64,000 nucleotides of DNA from Nitrosopumilus sp. GTDB lineage: Archaea; Thermoproteota; Nitrososphaeria; Nitrososphaerales; Nitrosopumilaceae. A model generated the notes under the pieces. The model saw only the letters and a program-made list of their open reading frames with translations. It did not search any database and had not been told where the DNA came from. This document shows positions 1 to 15,337 of the stretch, piece by piece. The stretch covers positions 1,696,001-1,760,000 of the forward strand of contig OZ241981.1 in the NCBI GenBank assembly GCA_965204345.1, read 5' to 3'. Every line of letters starts with the position of its first letter. The stretch's first letter is position 1. A program made the position numbers and the translations under genes.

Positions 1-868
1 CTTCGTCTCTGCCTGTTCTTAGAAACTCTGAGATTGCCTGTCCTGCATACACTCCTCCCATTCCGCTAGTAAAAATTCCTCCTGCCGTTGTGGGTTTTGC
101 CTGTCCTGCCGCATCCCCAATGATTACAGTTTTGCCTTCAACAAATTTTTTGATGGGACCCTTAATCCAGATTGGAGCAAAAATCTTCCTAATCGTTGAA
201 AATTCCCCTCTTTCTTTGAGAATATCCTCCATTGTCTGTGCAACATTGATTCCGCGTCCTGCAACACCCACTTTGCCCTTGCCCTCATCAGATGGGATTA
301 CCCATGCAAAGAATCCCGGATATTTTTGCTGATCAAAAATCACTTCCACCCTTCCCTTTTTTATCCAGCCTGCATAAATCTCGTATTGGGCTGATGACAA
401 AATGCCCGTTCTATCCTTGTGTATGAGTGATGAGACTCCCCTGGCATCAACAAAAATTTTACAGTCTATTTTTTCTTCACTGGTTCTAATCCCAGTATCA
501 GTCAATTCCTGAAAGCTTGTTCTAACTTTGATTGTGGCTCCGTTTTTTTGAGCTTGAAAGGCAATTTGTTTGTCTAGCTCCCTTCTGCTAATTTCTATGA
601 CTTTTTGATTTTTGGAATCCAGGGTAAAGCTGTTGCCGTTTGGTGATGTTATTTCTGCACATTCTATCATGTGATCAAAGGTTTTTCTAAATGGTATTAC
701 CCCGAGTTCCTCTAATCCTGACATGCTTACCAGTCCTCCGCAGTGTTCTGGGGTTCCTATCTCATAGTCTTCTTCAATGACAAGCACTGAAAAACCCCTA
801 GAGGCAATTTCCCTGGCACACAATAGCCCTGCAACACTGCCTCCTGCAATTACTACATCAATGCTCAC
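1..868 (-). CDS. Geranylgeranyl reductase family FAD-dependent oxidoreductase (3' end outside window)
   Basis: Manual translation from GTG at 868: MSIDVVIAGGSVAGLLCAREIA...IEEDYEIGTPEHCGGLVS; later GDAAGQAKPTTAGGI. Absent from the ORF track because it runs off the edge. Confidence 0.88.
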   Translation of the reverse strand, partial: MSIDVVIAGGSVAGLLCAREIASRGFSVLVIEEDYEIGTPEHCGGLVSMSGLEELGVIPFRKTFDHMIECAEITSPNGNSFTLDSKNQKVIEISRRELDKQIAFQAQKNGATIKVRTSFQELTDTGIRTSEEKIDCKIFVDARGVSSLIHKDRTGILSSAQYEIYAGWIKKGRVEVIFDQQKYPGFFAWVIPSDEGKGKVGVAGRGINVAQTMEDILKERGEFSTIRKIFAPIWIKGPIKKFVEGKTVIIGDAAGQAKPTTAGGIFTSGMGGVYAGQAISEFLRTGRDE

Positions 869-945
869 AGATTTTGCTTATTGTTCAATTATTTAATTCA
901 AAAGAATTTGTCCTAATCATACATATTTAGCCCATACAGTATACC

Positions 946-1780
946 ATGGTTATCAAATCACGTTCACTTTTTGAAATTTAAAGAATCAGCCAAATCAGAA
1001 AAAGTACTAAAAAATCAGTGATCATCTAAGGCGTTTTTGCAACTATTACAAAATTTTAGATTCAGACGAGTTGTTGAACTCTGATACCTAAAGGTGCATA
1101 TGATGATTGAATATATGTAATTTATCTCAAAGAACATGATTAGTATTAACTCTGTTCCAATCTACATGACTGGTGTAAGGCATTTTTGCATAATGAACCG
1201 TTTGATGATTCATTGGGATATTGTGAACAAAATGTCCTTGAGAAGACAGAGAGAGCCGGTACATATTTTGGAGGACTGGACATATTCAAAAGATGTTGGA
1301 ATCTGCCTCATCCAAATACCATAGTGGATTAGCTTACTTACTGGCATCAACTAAAAAGGATGCGAATCGAAGTTTTAGATTGTGAATTAACTCTCAAACC
1401 TCTTGGGTTGATATGCAGAATTCTTGCCAGACTATTCCACTTTATCCTGATTTAAGGGACAAACATTGGGCATTTCTTACTCCTAAAGCCTTGCAATCAT
1501 TGAACGAATACTTTGATAAAAGAAAACGTGATCATAAAGTATTTGATCGCAAAACACCTCTATTTAGAATTGTCTATCAGTTAGGAACTGTAAAATCAAA
1601 ACAACTTCACTCAGCAGAAGCAAAAACTGCCGTTTATTGGTTAGTCAACAAAGCTAGTATAGAAATAACTTGTGTTAAAAGACATTTTGATATTTATATG
1701 GATCATGGATTCCGAAAACGGTTTAATAATGAGATATTTGTTATTATGTTGAAAAAGAACTTGATGAATTTAATTTAATA
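946..1780 (+). pseudogene. Degraded tyrosine recombinase/integrase
   Basis: Fragments in several frames: RSL..FKESAKSEK, SINSVPIYMTGVRHFCIMN..IHW, WAFLTPKALQSLNEYF..PLFR, HGFRKRFN (HxxR catalytic box); multiple stops and frameshifts. Confidence 0.75.
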
Positions 1781-2095
1781 TGGAGTGGTATACCAATACA
1801 GCAATCTCAAAAACAGGCACAGTAATTTTAGACTAGATTCTGAACTTAATTTCAGGTTATTTTAGATCCAAAATATTCATTCAATCTAAAAGATTTAAAA
1901 TTATTAGCTAGGAAACAAATTTAAAAATAAATGGATTTTAGTAAACTCATTTGGCTAATGCTGATAAACGGTCATGAAAAAACTCGATTTTATTATCTAA
2001 AAAATTCCCCTAACAATATACGAAAAATGAAACTATTTTAAGAAAAATATTGGAAAAACACAAGGTGCTCTCAAAAGACCATGTTATCTCTTGTG

Positions 2096-2259
2096 ATGTT
2101 AATATATTAACATATATAACAGTTATAACTGTTAATAAATTAACATATTTGTAGGTTTGAAAAGACTGAAAATTTTAAATTTTTTTGAAATTTATTTTTT
2201 CAAAAATATGTTAATATATTAACATATATAACAGTTATAACTGTTAATAAATTAACATA
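2096..2259. promoter_or_regulatory. Two identical 52-bp direct repeats (2096-2147, 2208-2259), each made of three 16-bp palindromes; candidate operator
   Basis: ATGTTAATATATTAACATATATAACAGTTATAACTGTTAATAAATTAACATA occurs twice; the second copy ends 3 bp before the ATG at 2263. The repeat is seen directly; the regulatory role is inferred. Confidence 0.7.
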
Positions 2260-2262
2260 ATT

Positions 2263-3384
2263 ATGAGAACTGATTCAAATTTGAAAAGATCTGAATACCC
2301 TCAAGCATCAATGAGAAGATTGTCGTTAAGACCCCTCTTTCCAACAAAAAACGATATTGGACTTTTTGTTGGACGAGAAAAAGAAATGAATGTAATAGAA
2401 TCTTGTATGCGAAATCGGCTAAATTTGCTTTTGGTTGGAGAAAGAGGAACAGGTAAAACCTCGTTGCTAAATTATACTTATTACAAAACAATAAAAATTG
2501 ATAATGTTGTTGGAGTACTAGTAAACATTCTACCCAAATCTATTTCAGACACATCTAGTTTTCTTAATTTAGTCTTAGATTCCACTTTGGATGAAATAAG
2601 ACATAAGCACTTTGCAGAACAATTTTTTAGCGAATTTGATACTAGACGAACAAATGATGTCTTTATTGCATTTAATTCAATAATCACTATCTTAAAACAA
2701 CATAATGTTGAAGTTGTATTTTTAATTGATGGATTTGATCATCGTGTTGAACTTTGTTACAGAATAATGAGTTCATTACGTGAAGTTTTTTGGCAAACAG
2801 AATTTCCTGTAATTATGACAGGTGATTCAAATAAAATTAATGAATATAGAAGACCTCCATTAGATGCATTTTTTGATAAAAAACTAGAGCCGCAGCCTTT
2901 AAGCTCTGATGAAATAATGAAATTGTTTGAATTAAGACTCGGAAAAAAATATCTAGATAAAACCTCTGCAAATACACTGGCTGAAAGAACCGAATCTAGT
3001 ATAATCGATAAAATTTTGTTAGTGAAAGAATTTTTTGAAAAAAACCCAAAAACTAGAAAAATACTTTTATCTAAACTAGAACCAAAATCTGAAAAAAATA
3101 TGTCTATGGATACTTTAAATCAAAAAACCATTCTCAAAGTGTTTGAATCTTCTTTAGTGCATTTGTCTCCTGCAAAAAAAGAAATTTTACGGTATATTCG
3201 TATTAATGGACCCAGTTCAGCATCAGATAAGGAATTCCAGAAATATATGGGCGTATCTCGTTCCAGATTAACTCAAATGTTATTGTCATTAAGTAAAAAT
3301 GAAATACTGATGAAAAGCAAGGATGCTAAAAAAAGGAAAACTCTATTTGGAATATCTGATGAAATAAAAAGTAGATTTACATGA
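2263..3384 (+). CDS. AAA+/P-loop ATPase with C-terminal winged HTH
   Basis: FVGREKE, Walker A GERGTGKT, Walker B VFLIDGFD, C-terminal LSPAKKEIL...MGVSRSRLTQMLLSL. Confidence 0.8.
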   Translation: MRTDSNLKRSEYPQASMRRLSLRPLFPTKNDIGLFVGREKEMNVIESCMRNRLNLLLVGERGTGKTSLLNYTYYKTIKIDNVVGVLVNILPKSISDTSSFLNLVLDSTLDEIRHKHFAEQFFSEFDTRRTNDVFIAFNSIITILKQHNVEVVFLIDGFDHRVELCYRIMSSLREVFWQTEFPVIMTGDSNKINEYRRPPLDAFFDKKLEPQPLSSDEIMKLFELRLGKKYLDKTSANTLAERTESSIIDKILLVKEFFEKNPKTRKILLSKLEPKSEKNMSMDTLNQKTILKVFESSLVHLSPAKKEILRYIRINGPSSASDKEFQKYMGVSRSRLTQMLLSLSKNEILMKSKDAKKRKTLFGISDEIKSRFT

Positions 3385-4445
3385 CTAAAAATACCCTATT
3401 GCATGAATTATTGGAAAATGATGCCTTTAAACATACTACTATCCCAATCAATGAACTCCCATATCTTTATGAACCATTTGAAAAAATTTCTAACAAAAAG
3501 ATAGAAACAAAAATAATTAGTAGCATCCAAAAAAATCATGTAATAATCATAAAATCTGATGGTGGTACGGGTAAAACATGTGCTGTAAATTATTCTCTAT
3601 TGCAATTACAGGATGATATTTTTCCAATAGTGCTTAGTCCATTTATGGAAGAAGTTGATGAGGTCTGTAACTCAACAAAAGAATTTACTAGATTTGTTTT
3701 GAATCAAACATTACATGCAGTCAAAAATTTTTCAAATTTGTCAAAAGATACTGAAAAAAAGGTACGTGATGCACTCGCAATTGAAACATCTTTTATAGAA
3801 TCAAAAAAATATAGTATTGGAGGTTCTTTTAGAGCTGCCTTTTCAATTCTTCCATTTATTGCAAAAGTCGAAGCAGGAGTAAAAGCGGATTTAGAAAACT
3901 ATGCCTCTAAAGCAATAAAATCAAAAATATTCAACACTCAACGAATTGAAGCAATACGCGGGTTATGTGAAACAATTGAAGCTCATAATCTAAAACCTGT
4001 TTTCTATATTGATGATACTGACAAATTTTTGAAGAGAGAAGATCTAGATTTATCTAAATTAGTTCCTAAGTTTTTTGGGCAAATTTTGTTAGGACTTATT
4101 AAATTAGACAGACCTCTAATTTTAGCTGCTCATGCATATTATACAAAATCTGCTTCTTACAGAGATGCAGAAAGTAACTATGTTGATCAAGTAATAATCT
4201 TGCCTGAATTAAATAAGACCGGAATAATTTCTTTGATAAATACCAGAATTAAGGCAGTTGATAGTTCTAAAAACATAAAAAATGTTTTTGAAGATAATGC
4301 AATAAAGTCATTAATCAAATATTACAATTCGAAAAAAATTATTAGAAACCTAATGCTTATCTGTCAAGAAAGTATTGATCTTGCTGATTCTCAAGGAACA
4401 AAAGTCAGTAAAAGCATGGTTGATTCGTTTATAGTTGGAAAATAA
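3381..4445 (+). CDS. P-loop ATPase, translationally coupled to the upstream ATPase
   Basis: Variant Walker A SDGGTGKT, Walker B FYIDDTD; ATGA start/stop overlap. Confidence 0.75.
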   Translation: MTKNTLLHELLENDAFKHTTIPINELPYLYEPFEKISNKKIETKIISSIQKNHVIIIKSDGGTGKTCAVNYSLLQLQDDIFPIVLSPFMEEVDEVCNSTKEFTRFVLNQTLHAVKNFSNLSKDTEKKVRDALAIETSFIESKKYSIGGSFRAAFSILPFIAKVEAGVKADLENYASKAIKSKIFNTQRIEAIRGLCETIEAHNLKPVFYIDDTDKFLKREDLDLSKLVPKFFGQILLGLIKLDRPLILAAHAYYTKSASYRDAESNYVDQVIILPELNKTGIISLINTRIKAVDSSKNIKNVFEDNAIKSLIKYYNSKKIIRNLMLICQESIDLADSQGTKVSKSMVDSFIVGK

Positions 4446-4672
4446 AATTAAAACTATTATCAATAAAACATACACTGTTCAATCCTAGTGTCACTTGCCT
4501 GTCTTAAAGACACTTAAGAATACGTGACATAGAGTTTTCACTTAAACCGGAGATAAATGACTGGGTTGACAAGATAAACACTCCAGAACATGCCAAGGTA
4601 GGATAAAATTAGTTCGATTTTCCTCACTCTTTAATTCAAAAGTTTTTCACTAAGCCCGCTTTTGATAGTTGT

Positions 4673-5026
4673 ATGGGTGATATCAAGCAAGTTATTGTTG
4701 TTAGGACTGATCTTGAGATGGGCAAGGGCAAAATTGCCGCTCAGGTGGGACATGCATGTGTTCTTGGGGCAGAGCATGTTAGAAGATCCCATCCCAAATG
4801 GCATAGTGAGTGGTGGGGAGGACAAGAAAAGGTGGTAGTCAAGGTTCCTGGCATCAAGGACTTGCAAGAGATAAAAAAGCACGCAATTGACTTGAATCTT
4901 CCATGGTCTGAGGTATCTGATGCTGGTCATACCCAGCTGGCTCCTGGCACAGTAACCTGTATCTCTATTGGGCCTGCCCCAGAAGACCTGATTGACAAGA
5001 TTACCGGAGATCTAAAATTACTGTAA
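4673..5026 (+). CDS. pth2: Peptidyl-tRNA hydrolase Pth2
   Basis: KQVIVVRTDLEMGKGKIAAQVGHA, GQEKVVVKV, DAGHTQLAPGTVTCISIGP. Confidence 0.95.
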   Translation: MGDIKQVIVVRTDLEMGKGKIAAQVGHACVLGAEHVRRSHPKWHSEWWGGQEKVVVKVPGIKDLQEIKKHAIDLNLPWSEVSDAGHTQLAPGTVTCISIGPAPEDLIDKITGDLKLL

Positions 5027-5043
5027 TGTGCATTATTTTTTGT

Positions 5044-5362
5044 GGTCTGTTGCGTTCATGAGGATAGACACGAATCTGTTTGATCGCACAAGTTTTAATC
5101 AAGACCTACAAACGACACTGGTAAATTCCAGTGATCAGATCATCGAAACTTACCAGAATTGTCCGTTGCATTTACCGTGTTCATCTTAAAATCATCAAGA
5201 TTTGCTTTGATGTGGTTGTTTTCTCTAGTTCCTTGATCAATATCGGAGAAATAATCTCAATACACTAAATGAACATCAGTTTGAAAATCAGAAAACGCCC
5301 TAAGATTCAACAATGTCCCAAATTTATCTCTCGTGCCTATCCCTCATAAACGCAACAGAATC
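5044..5362 (+). mobile_element. MITE, ~320 bp, with ~30-bp terminal inverted repeats resembling IS6-family ends (copy 1)
   Basis: Left GGTCTGTTGCGTTCATGAGGATAGACACGA; right TCGTGCCTATCCCTCATAAACGCAACAGAATC; near-identical inverted copy at 15379-15699. Confidence 0.85.
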
Positions 5363-5369
5363 GCCATAC

Positions 5370-7556
5370 TTGAATTTAAAACTTACATTACCGATCATTG
5401 TTTTTGCACTAGTACTTTTATTCGTGTATCCCTTAGAGTCTATATCCCAAACTGATGAGAATGAACAGTTTACAGTGCCAGACAATCTTATCCCAGATGA
5501 CAGTACATTAGGTCCTGTTGCAAACGTGGATGTACCATCCAAGTTTGATGGCGGCTTTTATGACAAAATCCTGGGTCTCATATCTGAGGTACCTCAGGAT
5601 GGTGACTATGGGGTACATGACGGCACGCGATACTATGATGTCCTAATTATAGTGGCCAGAGGCGATGGGGACGATGGCATAGATGCAGATGAGACAGCAC
5701 GCGAGAACAAGTATGCAATTGCAGAGAAACTTGATCTTCTTGGCGCACGCAACATAGCATCTGCAGAGTCACTCTCATTTGTAACTGCATCTATCCCAGT
5801 TGCAGATGTTCCGGGGCTCTCACTTTATGACGAGATATATGCCATGGGAGATGGTGAAATTCCCGTGACTCTGGAGATTGATACGGTTAGGGGAACCGTA
5901 CATGCAACTCCAAACGAGATTAATACTGCAACTGATACCAATCTTGATGGCAGTGGAGTTGTTGTGGCAATCATTGACAGAGGCATCAACCACGATATTG
6001 CATTTAACGACAGAATCATTGACCGTGTAGAGTGCGATGATACGTGTGAGCCTGCAACTGCTGCCAGTGTGATCGGCGTTAATAGTAATAATGATCTTTC
6101 TACTGCTTTTGCATCCCATGGTACGCATATAGCCCAAGTCCTTGCCGCATCAGGACTCCCAGCTCATAACGGCATTGCGCCCGGTGTGGAACTTTTGGAT
6201 GCCTCAATTACTAGGCATACTGTTGATAACGATAAGAATCGTACTTTCGTTAATGCAAACAGAAATGACGTGGCACATGCCCTTGACTGGTCTCTCAAAA
6301 AAGGAGCCGACATGGCAGTCATGAGTTTTGGTTTTGGAATCTGCAATGGAGATTATGGAAAGACAACCAACCTCATCACAAATGAGGCAGTTGACAAGGG
6401 AATGGTTCTAGTATCATCTGCAGGAAACAGGGGCATAATTTATGGAGCGCCAAACCAGCCAGTTTATCAGTCTATAACTCATCCCGGATGCGGACACAAT
6501 GAAATTACCGTAGGCGGAATAAATGATCGTGGTGAAACAATATCAAAGGCAAGCTTTGCAAGCAGGGGTCCAGCACCCGGAACAGTCATGCTAAAGCCCG
6601 AGATAGTTGCACCTGCACAGCGTCTTCAGACACTGGACAATGTTGCAGAAGATGACAATTTTAGTCCTCGGTCCGGAACCAGCCTTGCTGCTCCCCAGGT
6701 AAGTGCAACTGCTGCCCTGTTGCTACAGGCAAAACCTGATCTGACTCCAGTTGAGATAAAGACCATACTTCTTCTTGGGGCTGACTGGCAGGGTCCAATC
6801 CCTTGCACGTCTGTACAATATGAAACAAACAATCCCAACGACAACTGTTCTTATGCCAGACAGCCATCTAACACTGTTGAGAGAAACAATTCTGAATCCC
6901 TTCAAATACTAAACAATGTGGGCTTTGGCATACTAAACACTGGAGAGTCACTTAGGTATGTTCACAGTGAATCATCATCATCATCTCATGTAATGTCAGA
7001 TCATCTCAAGTCAGATACGCATACAAAGCAGTATGAGTTTACAGTACAGGACACATCAAAACCAGTCAAAGTGATACTGTCATGGCTAGTTCATCCCCAT
7101 GGCAGTATAACCGGACAGTTGGGTCATACTGATACAGCAGTTCCTATTGCGAACCTAGATTTTACAATAACTACTCCAAATAATGCTACAATACGGGCAA
7201 CATCAGACCATCAGACAAACGAGTTTGCAGTGTTTGCCCCCACTCGCACCGGAACATACACCATAACACTTAGCGGCTCAGACATTGGTGACATAAACAA
7301 GTCGGTACAAAACTTTGCGCTGGCAAGTACCAACCCTCTTACACTTGTAGGTGACAGTATACTAGATAGAAAAATAGAGAGACACATCTCTACACAAACC
7401 AGAATTACAGATATCGCAGAAGATATTAAACAGTTAGAGCAAAAATTACAGGATAAAAAAGACAAGATAGAAGAACTAGACTCGTTACTTTCTGAGATTT
7501 ATCTACAAATTATAGAGTTGGCCCCTGTTGGTTACGAACTTCCATTCAAGGATTGA
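5370..7556 (+). CDS. Secreted S8 subtilisin-like serine protease with coiled-coil tail
   Basis: Triad motifs VAIIDRG, SHGTHIA, SGTSLAAPQV; oxyanion SAGN. TTG at 5370 chosen over 5313 because it aligns with the paralog's signal peptide and 5313 lies inside the MITE. Confidence 0.88.
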   Translation: MNLKLTLPIIVFALVLLFVYPLESISQTDENEQFTVPDNLIPDDSTLGPVANVDVPSKFDGGFYDKILGLISEVPQDGDYGVHDGTRYYDVLIIVARGDGDDGIDADETARENKYAIAEKLDLLGARNIASAESLSFVTASIPVADVPGLSLYDEIYAMGDGEIPVTLEIDTVRGTVHATPNEINTATDTNLDGSGVVVAIIDRGINHDIAFNDRIIDRVECDDTCEPATAASVIGVNSNNDLSTAFASHGTHIAQVLAASGLPAHNGIAPGVELLDASITRHTVDNDKNRTFVNANRNDVAHALDWSLKKGADMAVMSFGFGICNGDYGKTTNLITNEAVDKGMVLVSSAGNRGIIYGAPNQPVYQSITHPGCGHNEITVGGINDRGETISKASFASRGPAPGTVMLKPEIVAPAQRLQTLDNVAEDDNFSPRSGTSLAAPQVSATAALLLQAKPDLTPVEIKTILLLGADWQGPIPCTSVQYETNNPNDNCSYARQPSNTVERNNSESLQILNNVGFGILNTGESLRYVHSESSSSSHVMSDHLKSDTHTKQYEFTVQDTSKPVKVILSWLVHPHGSITGQLGHTDTAVPIANLDFTITTPNNATIRATSDHQTNEFAVFAPTRTGTYTITLSGSDIGDINKSVQNFALASTNPLTLVGDSILDRKIERHISTQTRITDIAEDIKQLEQKLQDKKDKIEELDSLLSEIYLQIIELAPVGYELPFKD

Positions 7557-8437
7557 ATTTTTTATTTAATGTGTGCATCAAGATAACAAATGTCTGATGC
7601 ATCCAAACGACTGCATCCTGTGATTAATAGTTTGCAAAAATCAAAAATATACCATAAATTAAACTCTTAGCAAATAAATTATTAGATTAGTTATTGATAT
7701 CTGCTGTCAACAGGTTACAGCTGTCTAATAGTCCAAAGTAAAACTATCAAGGACATTGCAAGCTCCATACCTCACTAGAGTCAGATTACATATGAGAATC
7801 TTTTTGCAAGGAACACTCCGCAGCTGGCTGAATCAAGAGGGATGCTTGTCACCCACATCGCAGATTCGCTTGAAGAGATTGCAATTGACTAAAATGACCT
7901 GCCCATAGTGTTTTAATCAGCACTTTGGAAAGTCATTTTTGCTTCCCATAGATGTCATTTTGGGCTGGACCCTGACTAATGAAAAAAGGCAAAGGGCATT
8001 TAGCAAGCTAGGGGGGGGACACAATTGTCGTAAAAATCAAGGAACAGAAATTGGATTTAAAATACACAAAGGATTGATCTTGTCAGGTTTTCTCAGACAG
8101 TTGCTGGAAAATTTTTCCAACAGATCTATTAGTGATAAAGAGAACGTTGGGTTGGTGTCTGAGAACAACAAACAGAGGTGTGTTTGTGGTCAGACTTACC
8201 AGATGAGCTTCAAAAAGATATAGAATTTGACGGATAGTTTGAAAAACCACAACATTCAAAAAAAGAGATCAAAGAGTGTTCCAATAAAATTGCAGCACAG
8301 CCTAATGTGCATAAGAGATAGGATTCACTTGAAAAATTGATTCCTTTTGAGAATGTCCCCTGTTATGACTGCCACTGGGATTTGTGTCACAGGTGTATTG
8401 CCAATCTGGTTTATGTGGCGGCGGGTCATCTCTCTAT

Positions 8438-8544
8438 CAGGTTATACAGGCATTACCAAGTCCATTTACTGGCACTCAAATATATCTAATCTTTTTTCTT
8501 CTATCCACAGGTTATACAGGCATTACAAAGTCCATTTAATGGCA
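8438..8544. repeat. 37-bp direct repeat, 2 copies, 70-bp period
   Basis: CAGGTTATACAGGCATTAC(C/A)AAGTCCATTTA(C/A)TGGCA at 8438-8474 and 8508-8544. Confidence 0.75.
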
Positions 8545-8569
8545 ATAGCAGACTTGTTTGTCCCAGCAA

Positions 8570-11500
8570 CTATGCAAATCCAAACAGGGATCTAAAAAAG
8601 TCTGTAATTACATCAAAGAAACCCTTTTGATCCTCGGAGATTCTCTGCGAATCTGCAGGCACACACTCTCCGCCTACCATCTGCGTTCCTGAGCTGCATG
8701 ATGACCCTTGATCATTACCAGTACCTGTGCCGGTTTGGGATGGTTCTGAATCGGTCACAGTCGTTGTCGACTTTATCTCTGTTTCTGCGGTTGGTTCTCC
8801 TGAGTCTGTCTTTTCACTCAAATCCGGTACCGGAGGTTCTGGCTTCATCCCTGTTTCTGCGGATGGTTCTGGGTCCATCTTTTTCATTCCTTCTTCTTCC
8901 TTCTCCTCCTCCCCCTCATTCAAACCTGGCACTTGTGGTTCTGGGTCCATTAGATTCTGGACTGCTCCAACCTGGGTATTGTTTGCAGGTATGCTTTGTT
9001 CTGGGGAATACTTGCCACTGCTTCCTCCACCACCGCCACCACCGCCACCACCGCCACCACCACTGCGGCTACTAGAAGGTGTGGATGGTGTAGGTTCTAC
9101 AGAAACCATAGAGAATGAGCCAAATGAGCTAAAGTGCGTGGTCCAGATGATCATATCAGGGCCGGCACGAACAAAACATGATTCCAATGTGGTGTCAGCA
9201 CCAATATTGTCATTGGCAGTATCCTGATTGACAGGAACAAACGGACATACAACCAGTGATCGTGATATCACATTGCCATCAGCATCGTTTCCTGAGAAGA
9301 AGGCACCCTCATGGCCTGCCTGGTCAGGCAAGAGTAACCTGACTGCCTGATCAAATGTTAATCTAGTGTTACCATCACCGACCGAGAATGCCAGTCCTAT
9401 CTCATCATTTGAGGTTGGAGGATCAACCGCAGTACCGGTAGTAGTAACAAGGGTTGGAACGGCAATGGTGCCACTCCAATCATCAGATGAGCCAGTTACA
9501 ACGACACTAGCTGGATAAGTGACAGTGACAGTTTGGGAATCAGAGACCTCAGAGGTGACCTCAGTTGTAGAATCAGAAATTCTCACACTCTTTGTTCCGC
9601 TTGCAGCATCATCAGCAAACGTTGGGGTGGCATTAAAGTCAAGCAGCTGGCCATCAGTGGCAATAATTGTGTCAGGTAATGTATCAGATACCACATTAAG
9701 GGTGATCAGATTTGAGGATGGCTCATATGTCACTACGCCACCATCGCCTCCAGAGGGAATATCGGCCTCAATTTCATCTCCTGTGGTGCTGATGGTGATG
9801 GTAACTGAATTAGATGCCTCATTGGGGTTGCCTGCAAGGTCTGCTGCCATACCTGCACCTATTGATACGGTTACTGTTCCGTCAGATGAGCCGCGAGCCA
9901 CATTAAAGGTGTAGACACTGCCTTCTCCGCCAATGTTGGATGCTGTCGGGGTACCACCGTTTACAGTACCAGTTACTGTAATGTCATCTAGATCAAAGTT
10001 CTCAATCTCCTCATCAAATGTTGTTGTAAACGTTACGGGGTCATCGCCAGTAATAGTACCATTGGCAGGCGTGATAGATACGGATGGGTTTACCATGTCC
10101 ACTGTAATAGTATGTACAGCACCCGTGTTGCCCCCTGCCACCACACCATCAGGTATGCTTACTGTAAGCTGACCCTCTCCAGTGATCCCGTGTATGACTG
10201 TAAAGTCGTATTGTGCACCACTGGTTCCATTAAAGTCAGTTATCAGGATATCTGGTGCCTGTGTCCTGCCAATTTCCACAACGACGGAATTTTCCCCTCC
10301 AAGATCAAGACTAATCTCAGAGTTAGATACCTGGGTTCCGTCAATTGCCACAACGATGTCAGACCGCTCAAATCCTGTGACATTGCCGCTAAATGTCGCA
10401 GTAAATGGGATGGCCTCAGAGTTGGTAGGATCAGATGTATCAGTACTCAGGGATACGGATGGGACAGTGGTGTCTATTCTAACGGTAACTGAATTAGATG
10501 CGGTGTTGGGGTTGCCTACAACATCTGCTGCCACTCCTGTTGCAACTGATACAGTTACGGTTCCATCAGATGATATACTTGCAACATCAAAGATGTATGT
10601 GCGGGCATCAACTGTCTCAAAGCCGGTTGCTTCAAGGATGCCGCCGTTGGCATCGCCTGCCACTGTAATGTCATCTACGATAAAGTCCCTAACGTCCTCG
10701 TCAAATTCTACTGTAAATGGTACCGTATCAAGTCCGGTGCTGCTGCCTGCAGACGAACTTACAGAGACAGTTGGGGCAAGGGTGTCTATGGTAACTGTAA
10801 CTGAATTTGACGCGGTGTTGGGGTTGTCTGCTGCATCTGTTAGCGCGTTTGCATCTATGGTTACGGTCACTGTTCCGTCTGTGGAGCCGCGTGCCACATC
10901 AAAGGTGTGGACACTGCCTGCTCCGCCAAGGTTGGATGCTATGGGACTGCCGTTATTTGCTGTACCCGTTACTGTAATGGCACCTAGACCAAAGTCGACA
11001 TCCTTGTTGAATGTTACCGTAAATGGTACCGTAGTTAGGTTGGTGCTCTCACCTGCAGTTGTAGTTACAGAGACGGTTAGGGGAATGGTGTCGGGATTGT
11101 CTGGAGGGTCTGTTGGATCTACATCTCTGACAGTAACTATCTGTGTAAGAGTTGCGGTATTTCCTGAATCATCAGTGGCAGTCCATACCACACTGTGTGT
11201 TCCAACGGCAAATGATGCAGTATCACTGGCAGTTACAGCAACAACGTCTGAATCCACTATATCAGTTGCAGCTGGCGCGCTTATTGATACGGGTGTAAGT
11301 TCTGCTGTGGCATCCACAGTTATTGGTGCAGGCTGTACTATTGTGGGAGGAGTGGTATCCTCCAGAGTTACAGTGCTAGTTGTTGTAGAGATATTTCCAG
11401 ATTCGTCAGTGGCAGTCCATACGATTATGGTATCACCCAGAGGAAACGATGCAGTTGCGTTGCTAGTTATGGTAAAAGGAAAGATATCTGTTACTGTGGG

Positions 11501-14500
11501 GTCTGCCAGCTGTATTGCAGTTAATGATGAGGTAGCCTCTGCTGTAACATTTTCAGGCTTTTGTATTACCGGTGGTGTTGTGTCTTGTACGGTTATCGTC
11601 TGTGCTGCAGTATCTGCGTTTCCTGCAGCATCTGTGGCAGTCCATGTAACTGTTGTGGAGCCAAGTGGGAAATTGTCTGGTGGTACGTCGTGAGTTATGT
11701 CAGGGCTTGGATCTGCATTGTCTGTAGCTGATGCCGTACCAGTATCAACAGGTGTACGAATGCCGGTAGCCTCTACAGTGAGATCAGCAGGAGCTGTAAT
11801 TACAGGTCTTGTGGTATCTGGAGGGTCAGGATTGTCGTCGCCGTCGTCACTAGTTATAAAAACATGAAACAACCCACTACCAAATATGCCAGATGTCGCA
11901 ATTATGCGAACAGGATAAGTGCCAACGGTGGCGTTATGCGGAGAGATGGTAATGTCTGCCGTACCACTACCAGTACGGGATATGCTGACAAAATCTGGGG
12001 CTTGTTCGAAATGCCACGAAATTGGTCTATTGTTGGGATGCGTTGCAGACACGCTTACAGTACGGGTCTCTCCGTTACGCAAAGTGATATCATCAATGGA
12101 TTCTATTACCGGAAATATACTTGGGATGAAGTTTGTGGTGGATGTGGGGCGTGACTGTGAATCACTTCCACCAAAGCCAAAATCAGAACCAACATAGGTT
12201 ACTGTAATTGGTGTATCATATGGAATGCCTGATGTCCTCAAAAACCTTGTGTCAGGGCTCCTCAAAATATTAGTGACCGAGGTGACTGTTCCATCAGACA
12301 GACTAAAATCACTTGATGTAAAATTAGTATAAAATTCTACAGGGAACTGTAGAATAATGGTGAAGGTAGTTGTCAATTCGGATGTAAATGTTAATGGTAG
12401 TGGTGAGATGTTAAAATTATCAATCTCTACGAATTCATTGTCTCTGTTTGAGTCTGCCACAAATCGCAGTAATGTCTGTGATTGATCACGTAGGTTAAGT
12501 GTCAGGGCTTCAGAGTGCCAGTTGTCGGTATTATTCCCATTGATACGAGTATATCGTTCCAGTGTTCTCCAGCTGAAATCTTCCAGATACTGCACATACA
12601 GACCTTCATCTGAGTTAATTCTCCTATCAACAAATCTATCAAAGGACACTACAAGTGGGTTTCCTGTGTCTATTGGCTGGTTAAGTCTAATAACACACTG
12701 GAAATCACAGTCTCTAGATGTTGCCACCGTATTGCCGCTAGCAGAACCTGGAATGGTTTTGTGGGCATTTTTTATCTCCCACACGCCATTGCCAGATTGG
12801 CTCCAATTATCAAGCGTGTTAAAACTGTCAGTCATTATGTTTGATGACGGGGGTGGATCGTTTGGGATTGCAAAGATCATGTGGTGAAGTATCATAATGT
12901 CATGTGAAGAATCATTGTCTGTACCTTCCCATGCAGTATAGAAATCTCCAAAACTACGGTATGGTCTATTCTTAAATACATCAATAATTTCATCATCGCC
13001 TAATTGCAGGTTATCTAAGTTAGTACCGTTACTGCTTTGTTCTAAATTGTCAAATATTTCATCAACGTTATGATCTTTGATATCCCATAGCGCTCCGGCT
13101 ACCTGTCCTTGAACTAATTGTCCAACAAGATGAACGTTATCTACTGGGAAAAAAGCTAAAAATCTATCATCATCAGGGAAGGACTCTAACCTGTCTTGCT
13201 CCAAATCAATACTACTAAAAGTGTCACGTTGGAAATTTGACGAATTGGTAACTAAATGAGGAACAAAATTAGCCCAACCTTCTGTCCATGCACATCTAGG
13301 ATTAGTTGGGAGATGAAGATAATGACCTCTCTCACCGACATCATCAAAATCGCCATCATTGTTTATATCAGTGTAACAAGGCTGACGCAGGAGTGGAAAT
13401 ACACCTTGTATATCCATAATATGGTGGCCAAATTCATGTAATATGATAAGTTTGCTTAAAGCCTGATCACTGGCAGAAGATCTCTCACCGTCAAGCCACA
13501 TAATGTTGGCTGATCGTAAATATGCAGCACCGTTACTGGCACTGTCTGGAAAAACACTAGCACCACTATCAGGCTCCCACTTTACAGTAAGCCTCTCAGG
13601 AGAAATACCGTGATGACTAAATAAATCACGACCATCAGAGATCGCATTGATTATACCGGCAGCTCTTGCATTACTGCCATTCAATACAAAATCAAACATT
13701 CTTGTATCCTGACTAAAGTTCAAAACTCTGGTAGATGATTCTGTATAAACACGTTGAGATAAACCTTCCACAACTAAATCACTTGCGCCCTTGGAACTAA
13801 CTCTGATAACTAGATCAACATTTGATGCATCAGAAGGATCATCATTTTGGATAGAATCTATGTGATATCCTCCCATGTTGGATGTAAATGTGCAGGCCCT
13901 GCTATTGTCAGTTGTAAACAATACGGTCTCTGTACCGTCAGATTCAGGATAATCATAGGCACAGACTTCTATCCCATTGATGGGTTCTGTGTTGTTGGAA
14001 AAATAAATTGGAGCAGATACAGAGCCTGTAATGGAAAAGGTGTTGGAAGAAGAGTCTTCTGCTGTTGCTGCTGCACCATCAGACGTCTCCTGAGTTGTAT
14101 CTACGGGGAATGCTGGGGCAGCAGCGGTATCTGTGGAGGAGCCGGTTGCCGCTGCTGTTACTGCACCATCAGATGTGTCATGAGGGCCAGTGTAATCTGC
14201 CTCGTATCTTTCCATTGCATCATCTACTTCCGCCTGCGTGAAATTAGAGTGACTCAAAATACTTTTTACATCATCCAATGGAAGAGATTTATCAACAAGC
14301 CATCCAATTAAATCATCATTAACTTTGCCAATATCATTGACAGCTATCTCGCCCAAAAGTTGCAGATGGTTGGCATATATTTCAGCTACTCTTTCCTCCG
14401 TCAAAATCTCATTAACTATCTCATCTTTGGGTCCTGGTTTATTGCCAAGTCTGCTATCTTTTTGAGGTGCAAAAGATTCAGGACTAGATGCACTAGCTAA

Positions 14501-15337
14501 AATGTCGTGATCCAAAAACGTGTATCCCTCATCCATATACTCATTTTCGGGCATAGAATGCTCATCAGATATTGCAAGGTAGACACCGCCACTGGATTCT
14601 AAAGGATCAAAGCGCAATGCATCAATTTCAATAAATCCCTCCTCTAGAATTTCTATAGTAACCATCACGGTATAAGCCCTGTCCGGCACGGGATCATCTA
14701 CTACATATCCGACATTATTATCAAATGACTCAAAGCTGGTTGGATCATCAGAGCCCGCATTTGTTGTGGCATCATCATGAAACAAAACTTTGTCATCGGG
14801 ATTGGTAAATACTTTTAGTGTGAATGGTTCCATGTATGGTTCAAAATTTATATTGTCAGTATAGACACCGGTAAAATTTACCAAGGCAGTCTGACCCACC
14901 TTGGGCAATTCTGAGAGTTCTAAAGAATAACTGTGTATAAGAATTCCCGACGATGATAACATTGAAGATTCTTTGTAATCAGCAATAATCTGCTTTTCTT
15001 TGTCAGTAAATACATGCGTGTCTGTCTGGCTTGTGATCTTTTTATTTAAGGACTCGTGAGCTTTTTGGGATGTTTCTGGTGTATATGCCGTCATGGTATA
15101 GCTGCTGCTGCCCCTGTCTACTAATTTCATCGCAGAATCACCAGTTAGGCAAACTGGCTTGCCTGCAAGAGTCACCATCAGAATCTTGCCGTCATTGCAC
15201 TGAATCATGTCCATTGGTATGCCTGCATGATGCTGGTCCAGTGGCGAGTCCGGGATTGCAGCATGTGTTGGCATCATCACTGCCACCATCATCACGGTAA
15301 CCAAAACCAAAAGTTTCGACACTGCGATTCCGGCCAT
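8570..15337 (-). CDS. Giant secreted/surface protein: HExxH zinc-metalloprotease-like domain, jelly-roll domain, HYR and Ig-like repeats, poly-Gly linker, acidic tail
   Basis: Signal peptide; ILHEFGHH plus AWTEGWANF; three HYR-like units (DTTxPxI...FPLGxTTVTWTATD..GN); DAAxN/DLAGN Ig repeats; C-terminal GFFDVITDFFRSLFG. Confidence 0.8.
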   Translation of the reverse strand: MAGIAVSKLLVLVTVMMVAVMMPTHAAIPDSPLDQHHAGIPMDMIQCNDGKILMVTLAGKPVCLTGDSAMKLVDRGSSSYTMTAYTPETSQKAHESLNKKITSQTDTHVFTDKEKQIIADYKESSMLSSSGILIHSYSLELSELPKVGQTALVNFTGVYTDNINFEPYMEPFTLKVFTNPDDKVLFHDDATTNAGSDDPTSFESFDNNVGYVVDDPVPDRAYTVMVTIEILEEGFIEIDALRFDPLESSGGVYLAISDEHSMPENEYMDEGYTFLDHDILASASSPESFAPQKDSRLGNKPGPKDEIVNEILTEERVAEIYANHLQLLGEIAVNDIGKVNDDLIGWLVDKSLPLDDVKSILSHSNFTQAEVDDAMERYEADYTGPHDTSDGAVTAAATGSSTDTAAAPAFPVDTTQETSDGAAATAEDSSSNTFSITGSVSAPIYFSNNTEPINGIEVCAYDYPESDGTETVLFTTDNSRACTFTSNMGGYHIDSIQNDDPSDASNVDLVIRVSSKGASDLVVEGLSQRVYTESSTRVLNFSQDTRMFDFVLNGSNARAAGIINAISDGRDLFSHHGISPERLTVKWEPDSGASVFPDSASNGAAYLRSANIMWLDGERSSASDQALSKLIILHEFGHHIMDIQGVFPLLRQPCYTDINNDGDFDDVGERGHYLHLPTNPRCAWTEGWANFVPHLVTNSSNFQRDTFSSIDLEQDRLESFPDDDRFLAFFPVDNVHLVGQLVQGQVAGALWDIKDHNVDEIFDNLEQSSNGTNLDNLQLGDDEIIDVFKNRPYRSFGDFYTAWEGTDNDSSHDIMILHHMIFAIPNDPPPSSNIMTDSFNTLDNWSQSGNGVWEIKNAHKTIPGSASGNTVATSRDCDFQCVIRLNQPIDTGNPLVVSFDRFVDRRINSDEGLYVQYLEDFSWRTLERYTRINGNNTDNWHSEALTLNLRDQSQTLLRFVADSNRDNEFVEIDNFNISPLPLTFTSELTTTFTIILQFPVEFYTNFTSSDFSLSDGTVTSVTNILRSPDTRFLRTSGIPYDTPITVTYVGSDFGFGGSDSQSRPTSTTNFIPSIFPVIESIDDITLRNGETRTVSVSATHPNNRPISWHFEQAPDFVSISRTGSGTADITISPHNATVGTYPVRIIATSGIFGSGLFHVFITSDDGDDNPDPPDTTRPVITAPADLTVEATGIRTPVDTGTASATDNADPSPDITHDVPPDNFPLGSTTVTWTATDAAGNADTAAQTITVQDTTPPVIQKPENVTAEATSSLTAIQLADPTVTDIFPFTITSNATASFPLGDTIIVWTATDESGNISTTTSTVTLEDTTPPTIVQPAPITVDATAELTPVSISAPAATDIVDSDVVAVTASDTASFAVGTHSVVWTATDDSGNTATLTQIVTVRDVDPTDPPDNPDTIPLTVSVTTTAGESTNLTTVPFTVTFNKDVDFGLGAITVTGTANNGSPIASNLGGAGSVHTFDVARGSTDGTVTVTIDANALTDAADNPNTASNSVTVTIDTLAPTVSVSSSAGSSTGLDTVPFTVEFDEDVRDFIVDDITVAGDANGGILEATGFETVDARTYIFDVASISSDGTVTVSVATGVAADVVGNPNTASNSVTVRIDTTVPSVSLSTDTSDPTNSEAIPFTATFSGNVTGFERSDIVVAIDGTQVSNSEISLDLGGENSVVVEIGRTQAPDILITDFNGTSGAQYDFTVIHGITGEGQLTVSIPDGVVAGGNTGAVHTITVDMVNPSVSITPANGTITGDDPVTFTTTFDEEIENFDLDDITVTGTVNGGTPTASNIGGEGSVYTFNVARGSSDGTVTVSIGAGMAADLAGNPNEASNSVTITISTTGDEIEADIPSGGDGGVVTYEPSSNLITLNVVSDTLPDTIIATDGQLLDFNATPTFADDAASGTKSVRISDSTTEVTSEVSDSQTVTVTYPASVVVTGSSDDWSGTIAVPTLVTTTGTAVDPPTSNDEIGLAFSVGDGNTRLTFDQAVRLLLPDQAGHEGAFFSGNDADGNVISRSLVVCPFVPVNQDTANDNIGADTTLESCFVRAGPDMIIWTTHFSSFGSFSMVSVEPTPSTPSSSRSGGGGGGGGGGGGGSSGKYSPEQSIPANNTQVGAVQNLMDPEPQVPGLNEGEEEKEEEGMKKMDPEPSAETGMKPEPPVPDLSEKTDSGEPTAETEIKSTTTVTDSEPSQTGTGTGNDQGSSCSSGTQMVGGECVPADSQRISEDQKGFFDVITDFFRSLFGFA

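Follow-up and report, generated by a model that had tools for sequence, protein, structure and literature searches.

Paired ORC/Cdc6-clade ATPase genes on the remnant of an integrated element in Nitrosopumilus: a candidate two-gene conflict module

What is the role of two overlapping ATPase genes that lie behind a decayed integrase gene in a marine archaeon? The genes, here called A and B, are found in a 64,000-nucleotide (nt) stretch of Nitrosopumilus sp. (assembly GCA_965204345.1, contig OZ241981.1, positions 1,696,001 to 1,760,000 of the forward strand), hereafter the window, whose numbering we use throughout. A and B form a two-gene operon that is the only intact cargo of an insertion, and pairs with the same gene order recur in distant archaea and bacteria. 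We favour, with a probability of about 0.5, a reading in which the pair would be an autoregulated, horizontally mobile conflict module serving defence or addiction.

The two genes are as follows.

2263..3384, plus strand: gene A, 373 amino acids (aa), characterised from the list of open reading frames (ORFs), Pfam matches, an AlphaFold (AF2) model and structural matches.
3381..4445, plus strand: gene B, 354 aa, a predicted stand-alone AAA+ ATPase made of a base and a helical lid, with no DNA-binding or effector domain.

The ATGA at 3381-3384 contains both the stop codon of A and the start codon of B. Each gene is present in a single copy in the genome and is AT-rich. One database copy of A begins at Met19 (nt 2317).

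Protein A gives sub-threshold Pfam matches to ATPase_2, AAA_16 and AAA_22, and a MarR-like match at residues 302-356 (E = 0.0045). Its AlphaFold model (predicted local distance difference test, pLDDT, 83.7) contains an AAA+ base, a lid and a winged helix. The closest structures are Cdc6/Orc chains (E = 2e-11 to 1e-8); the archaeal ATPase_2 proteins 2qen and 2fna and Apaf-1 are also matched. A is thus predicted to be an NTPase of the ORC/Cdc6-STAND clade with a winged helix. The Walker A motif is canonical in the window (GERGTGKTS). In a 17-row alignment of A members, seven rows have V, I or L in place of the Walker A lysine, and the A proteins of plasmid pFiD188 and loci L028 and L031 have R there; only three rows show an acidic residue next to the invariant Walker B aspartate on its C-terminal side, and the glutamate is missing in 14. 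Parts of the A family may bind nucleotide and not hydrolyse it. Conservation in the alignment is highest in the recognition stretch of the winged helix (SASD...SRSR.TQ). Substitution of the Walker A lysine by V, I, L or R is a trait of a high-GC subgroup (alignment A3: P0013, P0015-P0020; L009, L028, L031). A GxPR-like lid motif that other members keep is missing, too, from the proteins most closely related to the window's A.

Protein B has weak P-loop matches only in Pfam, and a sequence search of the PDB with a B profile likewise returns P-loop-level matches only. The B model (pLDDT 74.5, with a low-confidence insert at residues 87-164) matches Cdc6/ORC (Z = 15-17.5), TnsC (Z = 15) and MuB (Z = 13.9). 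Its Walker A (SDGGTGKT) and Walker B (IDDTDKF) leave the catalytic site intact. Across 76 B members, the conserved features are a Walker A of the form GxxGxGK[ST]S, a Walker B of the form DD[ST]D, often followed by W, and one arginine; at E <= 1e-3, 58 of these members match AAA_16, 28 match nSTAND1 and four match KAP_NTPase. From its predicted fold and motifs, B is best described as an ORC/Cdc6/TnsC-like AAA+ ATPase of minimal size, whose Walker B (DD[ST]D.W) resembles that of STAND proteins. The Pfam scan, the predicted model and the structure matches contain no effector domain in B. A complex prediction for A (residues 19-373) and B, run without controls, gave a score of 0.27 (mark 0.32), which speaks neither for nor against binding.

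An earlier note on this DNA had described two P-loop ATPase ORFs joined by an ATGA overlap, the first with a C-terminal winged helix-turn-helix (wHTH) and the second with a non-canonical Walker A and no evident effector. Most of this description holds: the overlap is exact, the wHTH is seen in the MarR-like match, in the order of helices and strands in the AF2 model and in the Cdc6/Orc matches, and B carries no recognisable effector. The remark on Walker A stands in part. The serine at the first position, where relatives have G or A, is mildly unusual and is the sole departure from [AG]xxxxGK[ST]; the catalytic residues are canonical.

A word-indexed search of 5.8 billion clusters returned six relatives of B and 14 of A, with one of each on a 5862-nt contig, probably the same contig. 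A B profile searched against 1.84 billion representatives matched 463 proteins at E <= 1e-3; with the limit set at E <= 1e-10 the number is 282. Almost all are 320-372 aa long. A first metagenome scan with a close B alignment (A1) found no relative, and a narrower B alignment (A5) was used to fetch 37 metagenome loci. One of these was a spurious P-loop match and two lacked the upstream side at contig ends, leaving 34 assessable loci; they include the near-duplicates L028/L029, L031/L032 and L044/L045. In 33 of the 34, the gene immediately upstream of B, on the same strand and as a rule overlapping it, is an A homologue. The A gene of L019 and the B gene of L051 are each split over two frames. 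In the one assessable locus without A (L020:1075-2886), B is fused to an N-terminal trypsin-like protease in a 604-aa frame.

The same A-B order occurs in a Nitrososphaerota metagenome-assembled genome (MAG; L004), directly 3' of a type III restriction-modification (R-M) system, in a Bacteroidales MAG (L005), with an ATGA overlap, and on the Rhodococcus fascians plasmid pFiD188 (hhalign E = 1e-46 for the A homologue and 2e-23 for the B homologue). No third gene is conserved across the loci. A and B are a conserved, co-transferred unit. The earlier note had asked whether homologues always occur as a pair, and they do in all but one assessable locus; its observation that no nuclease partner is present is upheld, as neither protein has an effector and no third gene is conserved.

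The B family occurs in Archaea, Bacteroidota and high-GC bacteria. Among 200 other genomes of the archaeon's taxonomic family, B was absent save for one 53-residue match (E = 3.8e-4). Two of 400 other genomes of the phylum had a match, one of them covering 80 positions (E = 8.3e-9) within a 418-aa frame at the chromosome start that we take for a cellular Cdc6. No B was found in 400 Bacteroidota genomes, with five candidates scored per genome, or in congeners (0/16 in the family search and 0/23 in the phylum search, overlapping samples). The pair is present on one plasmid (two records) among 72,556 plasmid records and in none of 50,697 phage records. The window's B had no plasmid match, P0050 matched no phage record, and viral contigs scanned with alignments A5 and A2 contained no relative. 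The distribution is very patchy across domains of life.

Comparison with empty sites in congeners places the pair on an insertion of about 3.7 kb (892-4642) between a putative geranylgeranyl-reductase-like (GGR) ORF (2..868, minus strand, identity read off the translation) and Pth2 (4673..5026, Pfam E = 2e-41). The features that delimit and fill the insertion, apart from A, B and the repeats next to A, are listed here.

892..904: left 13-nt direct repeat TTTAATTCAAAAG at the GGR-side junction, an attachment (att) core or target duplication, from repeat spacing and alignment with 12 empty sites.
935..1778, plus strand: decayed tyrosine-recombinase (integrase) gene in two frames, with several in-frame stops and an unrecognisable C-terminal part.
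4471..4608: mosaic of short dispersed repeats between the B stop codon and the right repeat, from genome copies and contig depth.
4630..4642: right 13-nt direct repeat, which runs on into native Pth2 upstream sequence, from the repeat search and empty-site alignment.

The divergent start codons of GGR and Pth2 are 3804 nt apart in the window, versus 66-76 nt in 17 of 26 congeneric loci (66 nt exactly in 12 of the 17). The gap is 228, 1120 and 1129 nt in three further loci, and GGR is outside the fetched stretch in the remaining six, three of which are truncated by contig ends. In an alignment with 12 empty congener sites, TTTAATTCAAAAG occurs once per empty site and at both ends of the extra DNA here; the two copies are spaced 3738 nt apart, which equals the extra length. 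GC content is 0.23-0.31 across about 1500-4500 versus 0.42-0.48 in the flanks. Sequencing runs of several studies yielded contigs that contain the insertion in nearly unchanged form; the single-base gaps of run X8 strike flanking essential genes too and are taken for assembly errors. Window 1-12000 contains no tRNA gene. The empty site in congeners, and the 13-nt repeat at both junctions with a spacing equal to the extra length, show that 892-4642 is an insertion. We read it as what is left of a small element of the 'cryptic integrated element' type of Thaumarchaeota that had integrated site-specifically. The earlier note had placed the pair on an integrated element, directly after a dead integrase and in DNA more AT-rich than its flanks, and each of these points was upheld, the integrase indirectly.

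That indirect route was as follows. Direct Pfam detection of the remnant failed, both in scans of island fragments and in a PF00589 scan of the genome, and tblastn with the genome's own integrases gave no significant match to it. A 130-aa frame at 1386-1775 matches intact ORFs of 300-460 aa in 107 of 301 genomes of the taxonomic family (five genomes of this tally are flagged unpublished and were used in the tally only). The best intact relative, a 357-aa ORF on L082, scores 29.7 bits with Phage_integrase against a cut-off of 27.1; in tblastn, its residues 13-101 map to 971-1234 and its residues 114-263 to 1269-1727 in a different frame. In-frame stops break these stretches, such as the TGA at 1383-1385. 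We therefore identify the remnant as an integrase through intact relatives, the best of which passes the Phage_integrase cut-off. We also considered an SSV-type integration, in which the integrase gene is split, and found it unsupported: the remnant lies wholly inside the left end of the element. Elsewhere in the genome (G000), relatives or fragments of the same integrase family are found at C1:80704-81015 and C1:1199069-1199359, one of them with two in-frame TGA codons, which suggests that the genome contains other integrated elements in various states of decay.

Other observations concern the site and its surroundings. The mosaic at 4471-4608 has more than 20 partial copies elsewhere on the chromosome (34-73 nt, 89-100% identical), and contig depth there is about 9-fold that of the flanks. 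Extra DNA at the GGR/Pth2 site is also found in six other congeners (L063, L078, L077, L058, L065 and L073), with the gaps of 1120, 1129 and 228 nt given above and, in three uncut loci, with no GGR inside 1.5 kb; elements may have integrated here repeatedly, which would make the site a hotspot. Farther to the right, a 2255-aa ORF with long, repetitive modules rich in Thr, Ser and Asp, a run of Gly and an N-terminus that looks like a signal adjoins a 747-aa ORF that resembles a secreted subtilisin-type protease (8570-15337, minus strand, and 5313-7556; both by translation).

The region directly upstream of A contains two copies of a repeat.

2096..2150: first copy of a 55-nt repeat, with perfect 18-nt palindromes at 2096-2113 and 2117-2134, from a repeat and palindrome search.
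2151..2207: very AT-rich spacer of 57 nt between the two repeats, from sequence and composition.
2208..2262: second copy of this repeat, which runs up to the ATG of A; its palindrome at 2229-2246, TAACAGTTA followed by TAACTGTTA, is the proposed operator.

The 55-nt repeat is unique to this locus within the genome, and each copy has two perfect 18-nt palindromes. The palindrome TAACAGTTATAACTGTTA consists of two TAACNGTTA units, and a TATA-like ATATATAA lies just 5' of the palindrome at 2229-2246. Of 29 loci, 21 have a related motif, T[AT]AC-N0-1-GT[AT]A, in the 130 nt upstream of A, in most cases 9-17 nt ahead of the predicted start, and 19 have it within 60 nt; elsewhere in the same sequences it has 23 matches in 291,712 nt. 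Outside the upstream windows, the 28 fetched loci have five matches to TAACNGTTA/TTACNGTAA in about 228,000 nt, and the 64-kb window has 18. Because the motif was picked after viewing these loci, we scanned all 256 four-base half-sites over the 60 nt upstream of A: TAAC was found in 13 loci and TTAC in six, the next best half-site was found in two, and control windows inside gene A had no match. The upstream palindrome is conserved, and no stretch of A is better conserved than the one with which its winged helix would recognise DNA; we infer that A binds the palindrome and represses its own operon.

Effector fusions and neighbouring genes provide further context. Among the 150 best B representatives, two carry a fused effector, in one case a CAP12/Pycsar-type TIR domain (E = 9.8e-22) and in the other a trypsin-like protease matching the PADLOC candidate PDC-S45 (E = 4.5e-62); the other 148 are similarly short. 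Strong matches to PDC-S45 and PDC-S35 are confined to the fused protease and TIR domains. The 104 neighbour ORFs include two AbiEi, a HipA, two KAP, two integrase and an SNF2/DpdE-like gene, besides the type III R-M system, and the pFiD188 pair adjoins Phd/RelE and RES toxin-antitoxin (TA) genes. An integrase lies 217 nt from the pair in L049, and homologous integrase ORFs are near the pair in L049, L050 and L051. The R-M system upstream of A-B in L004 (3163-7702) has an 862-aa frame for a ResIII/REase_III helicase-nuclease and a 648-aa frame that is putatively methylase-like by reading, with one or two doubtful small ORFs in between. In some bacterial subclades a metabolic gene abuts the B stop codon, namely a Rieske ring-hydroxylating oxygenase in L037 (5060-6076) and L040 (2650-3663) and a luciferase-like monooxygenase in L031-L033. 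Such contacts are probably chance synteny within close relatives.

We read A-B as a conflict module because it sits on mobile DNA, is sparsely spread across domains, has a TA/Abi-like layout, includes TIR and protease fusions and has some conflict genes as neighbours; in addition, the accessible part of PMC10853773 predicts anti-selfish-element roles for Orc/CDC6-family ATPases. That A and B are intact beside a dead integrase makes selection plausible. The case for an antiviral function, which draws on the fusions, the patchiness and the R-M, Abi and TA neighbours, is circumstantial.

Several observations weigh against this reading. The pair has no enzymatic effector, which leaves its mode of action to conjecture, and effector fusions are rare (2/150). 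In structure, both proteins come nearest to replication initiators, and the window's repeats flank an AT-rich spacer, as at an origin. No model of PADLOC-DB v2 matches B, and A has weak partial matches only (CARF-HTH and mad8, E at least 6e-4). Matches among the 76 members are to mad3 (17), mad8 (12), PifA (5) and QatA (3), with best E-values of 1e-6 to 1e-5, and the mad3 match of P0099 covers the P-loop only (residues 51-72). By raw counts, housekeeping or metabolic genes (pyruvate kinase, FtsW, RNase E/G, Obg, oxygenases) make up the larger part of the 104 neighbour ORFs; a location near defence islands, which the earlier note had raised, would fit some neighbours and not the majority. The palindrome was first spotted by eye on the same loci, before the unbiased scan. 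These loci are partly kin (the upstream regions of L044 and L048 are identical and three pairs are about 82% alike), and the motif is absent upstream in L004, the closest genomic relative with context.

As a conflict module, the pair might work as follows. A, probably as a dimer, would bind T[AT]AC-N0-1-GT[AT]A palindromes over its own promoter and repress the operon. B would be an NTP-driven switch or oligomeriser that works with A as DNA-binding sensor and regulator, on the assumption that the two interact. Since no enzymatic effector is present, the pair would take effect through ATP-dependent binding or occlusion of DNA, or by arresting growth, and not through cleavage. A bolder version, which we put forward tentatively and regard as doubtful, holds that the pair is an effector-less immune system common to Archaea and Bacteria that acts by DNA occupancy. 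A on a TAAC-N-GTTA operator would keep both ATPases silent until foreign DNA or proteins are sensed; an ATP-dependent nucleoprotein complex would then block replication or transcription of the invader or the cell, giving immunity without cleavage or NAD+ depletion. In rare lineages, B would have gained a TIR or protease effector and dispensed with A.

The main alternative is that A and B are the replication module of the element, with A as an Orc1/Cdc6-type initiator on the two 55-nt repeats, which would form an origin with the AT-rich spacer they flank, and B as its AAA+ partner or loader. Both proteins have their nearest structures among Cdc6/Orc, including the Sulfolobus solfataricus Orc1-1/Orc1-3 heterodimer on origin DNA, two palindromic repeats flank the 57-nt AT-rich spacer directly 5' of A, and the element holds nothing but an integrase besides the pair. 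Cdc6/Orc1 homologues in thaumarchaeal cryptic integrated elements are read as replicative in the accessible part of PMC6563490. We nevertheless think a replication role unlikely. The high-GC bacterial pairs sit between housekeeping genes, with integrases limited to two matches in the 104 ORFs and the homologous ORFs of L049, L050 and L051; their loci have a single short palindrome 9-17 nt before the start in place of iterons and an unwinding element. One plasmid in 72,556 and no phage record is a sparse showing for a replicon. The Walker B glutamate is missing in 14 of 17 A members and the Walker A lysine is V, I or L in seven, TIR and protease fusions of B are unfit for a replication protein, and neither protein reaches the Orc1/Cdc6 NCBIfam cut-offs.

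The conserved palindrome over the promoter and start region and the conserved wHTH of A would also suit a regulatory pair outside any conflict, in which A is an NTP-dependent transcription factor and B a co-ATPase that together control their own operon, and perhaps host genes, and hitch-hike on mobile DNA. The many metabolic neighbours, including the oxygenase and monooxygenase genes noted above, point the same way. Those neighbours vary by locus, which leaves no common regulon, and TAACNGTTA/TTACNGTAA is rare outside the upstream windows in the fetched loci and the 64-kb stretch; together with the extremely patchy distribution across domains and the rare effector fusions of B, this makes a regulatory pair rather improbable. 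An ordinary housekeeping role, as Orc1/Cdc6 or another core ATPase of the archaeon, is favoured by fold similarity to Cdc6/Orc only. Both genes are part of an insertion that 17 of 26 congeneric loci lack, B is in no sampled congener, and A and B are single-copy and AT-rich. The window's A and B have no match to Orc1/Cdc6 models (TIGR02928 and NF001624-type) at E <= 0.01, and relatives score 15-30 bits with the NCBIfam models against cut-offs of 181-354. On account of the insertion and these scores we exclude a housekeeping role, which the earlier note had named among the findings that would overturn its proposal, for all practical purposes.

Large defence systems, among them BREX, Ssp and MANTIS, are increasingly found to have ORC/Cdc6-clade ATPases at their core, and a conflict module of A and B would be a minimal version of this theme. 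It would also be tractable, with two genes, a putative operator recognisable from a marine archaeon to soil bacteria, and natural B-effector fusions. If the pair protects against phages or plasmids, it would offer a simple model for NTPase-driven, effector-less immunity and a case in which Archaea and Bacteria have exchanged defence cargo. Should it instead be the replicon of the element, ORC-type initiators would be operating in bacteria, which would also be unexpected.

How does the pair compare with known systems? Neither A nor B reaches a curated cut-off of Pfam or NCBIfam. With nothing for B and weak sub-domain matches for A in PADLOC, the earlier note's failure to match a named system is sustained. 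The element itself resembles the cryptic integrated elements of Thaumarchaeota, which, in the part of PMC6563490 available to us, have short direct repeats, lie in intergenic regions in 15 of 68 cases and range in size from 2.6 kb. It shares with them an integrase gene (here a pseudogene), short flanking direct repeats, an intergenic target and absence from the same site in relatives; it differs in that the integrase is dead and the cargo is the A-B ATPase pair.

Archaeal Orc1/Cdc6 initiators (PDB 2qby, 1fnn and 2v1u) share the AAA+ base, lid and winged helix of A, B matches their AAA+ part (Z = 15-17.5), and repeats adjoin the gene. The pair differs in scoring under all curated cut-offs, in lying on an insertion and in being found in bacteria; B is without a winged helix (base and lid only), and A mostly lacks the Walker B glutamate. 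As for adjacency to an origin, repeats and an AT-rich spacer do lie at A, on an insertion that is absent from congeners, and the bacterial loci have one short palindrome. STAND NTPases (Avs/NLR-like; nSTAND1, AAA_16) resemble B in Walker B (DD[ST]D.W), in the N-terminal motif and in rare TIR and protease effectors. In contrast to them, B is about 350 aa long, has no sensor repeats, has no effector in 148 of the 150 best representatives and is paired with A. The STAND layout of an NTPase with sensor repeats or an effector is not seen here: B ends after the lid, and nSTAND1 is under the cut-off for the window proteins.

The small BrxD/KAP-like ATPases of BREX-type systems are similar to B as a stand-alone ORC/Cdc6-clade ATPase without DNA-binding domains, and language-model neighbours of B include clusters with PF10923 (BrxC_BrxD) in 20-74% of members, which we treat as a lead only. 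No PglZ, methyltransferase or helicase partner is among the neighbours listed, and there is no sequence match to PADLOC BREX models. We rejected membership in MANTIS/Gao_RL and BREX, which require a methyltransferase, PglZ or helicase-nuclease; none is conserved here. Type II TA and AbiE-like modules have in common with the pair an upstream wHTH gene, a promoter palindrome, a 4-nt overlap with the downstream gene and residence on mobile DNA. The layout of an autoregulated TA or Abi pair is thus present (ATGA overlap, wHTH in A, conserved palindrome), with DNA binding by A presumed. The difference is that both proteins are AAA+ NTPases of about 350 aa and have no known toxin fold.

The nearest theme is that of Orc/CDC6 ATPases predicted to act against selfish elements, which in the accessible part of PMC10853773 include TIR fusions and operons with a Walker-B-disrupted second Orc/CDC6 copy and a KAP NTPase (see also PMC12839542). 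The likenesses, within that part of PMC10853773, are a wHTH at the C-terminus of an ORC/Cdc6-clade AAA+ protein, an operon that also encodes another P-loop NTPase, occasional TIR fusions and a mobile, patchy distribution. The operons described there have two Orc/CDC6 copies and a KAP NTPase, or HerA/FtsK with nucleases, whereas here there are two conserved genes and no third, and KAP_NTPase is matched in four of 76 B members. The Walker B glutamate is missing in 14 of 17 A members. The exact A-B pair might already be in the supplementary gene lists of that study (PMC10853773). We conclude that the pair is an unnamed variant within the known theme of ORC/Cdc6-STAND NTPases in conflict systems, distinguished by its two genes, its lack of an effector and a putative operator that is conserved across domains.

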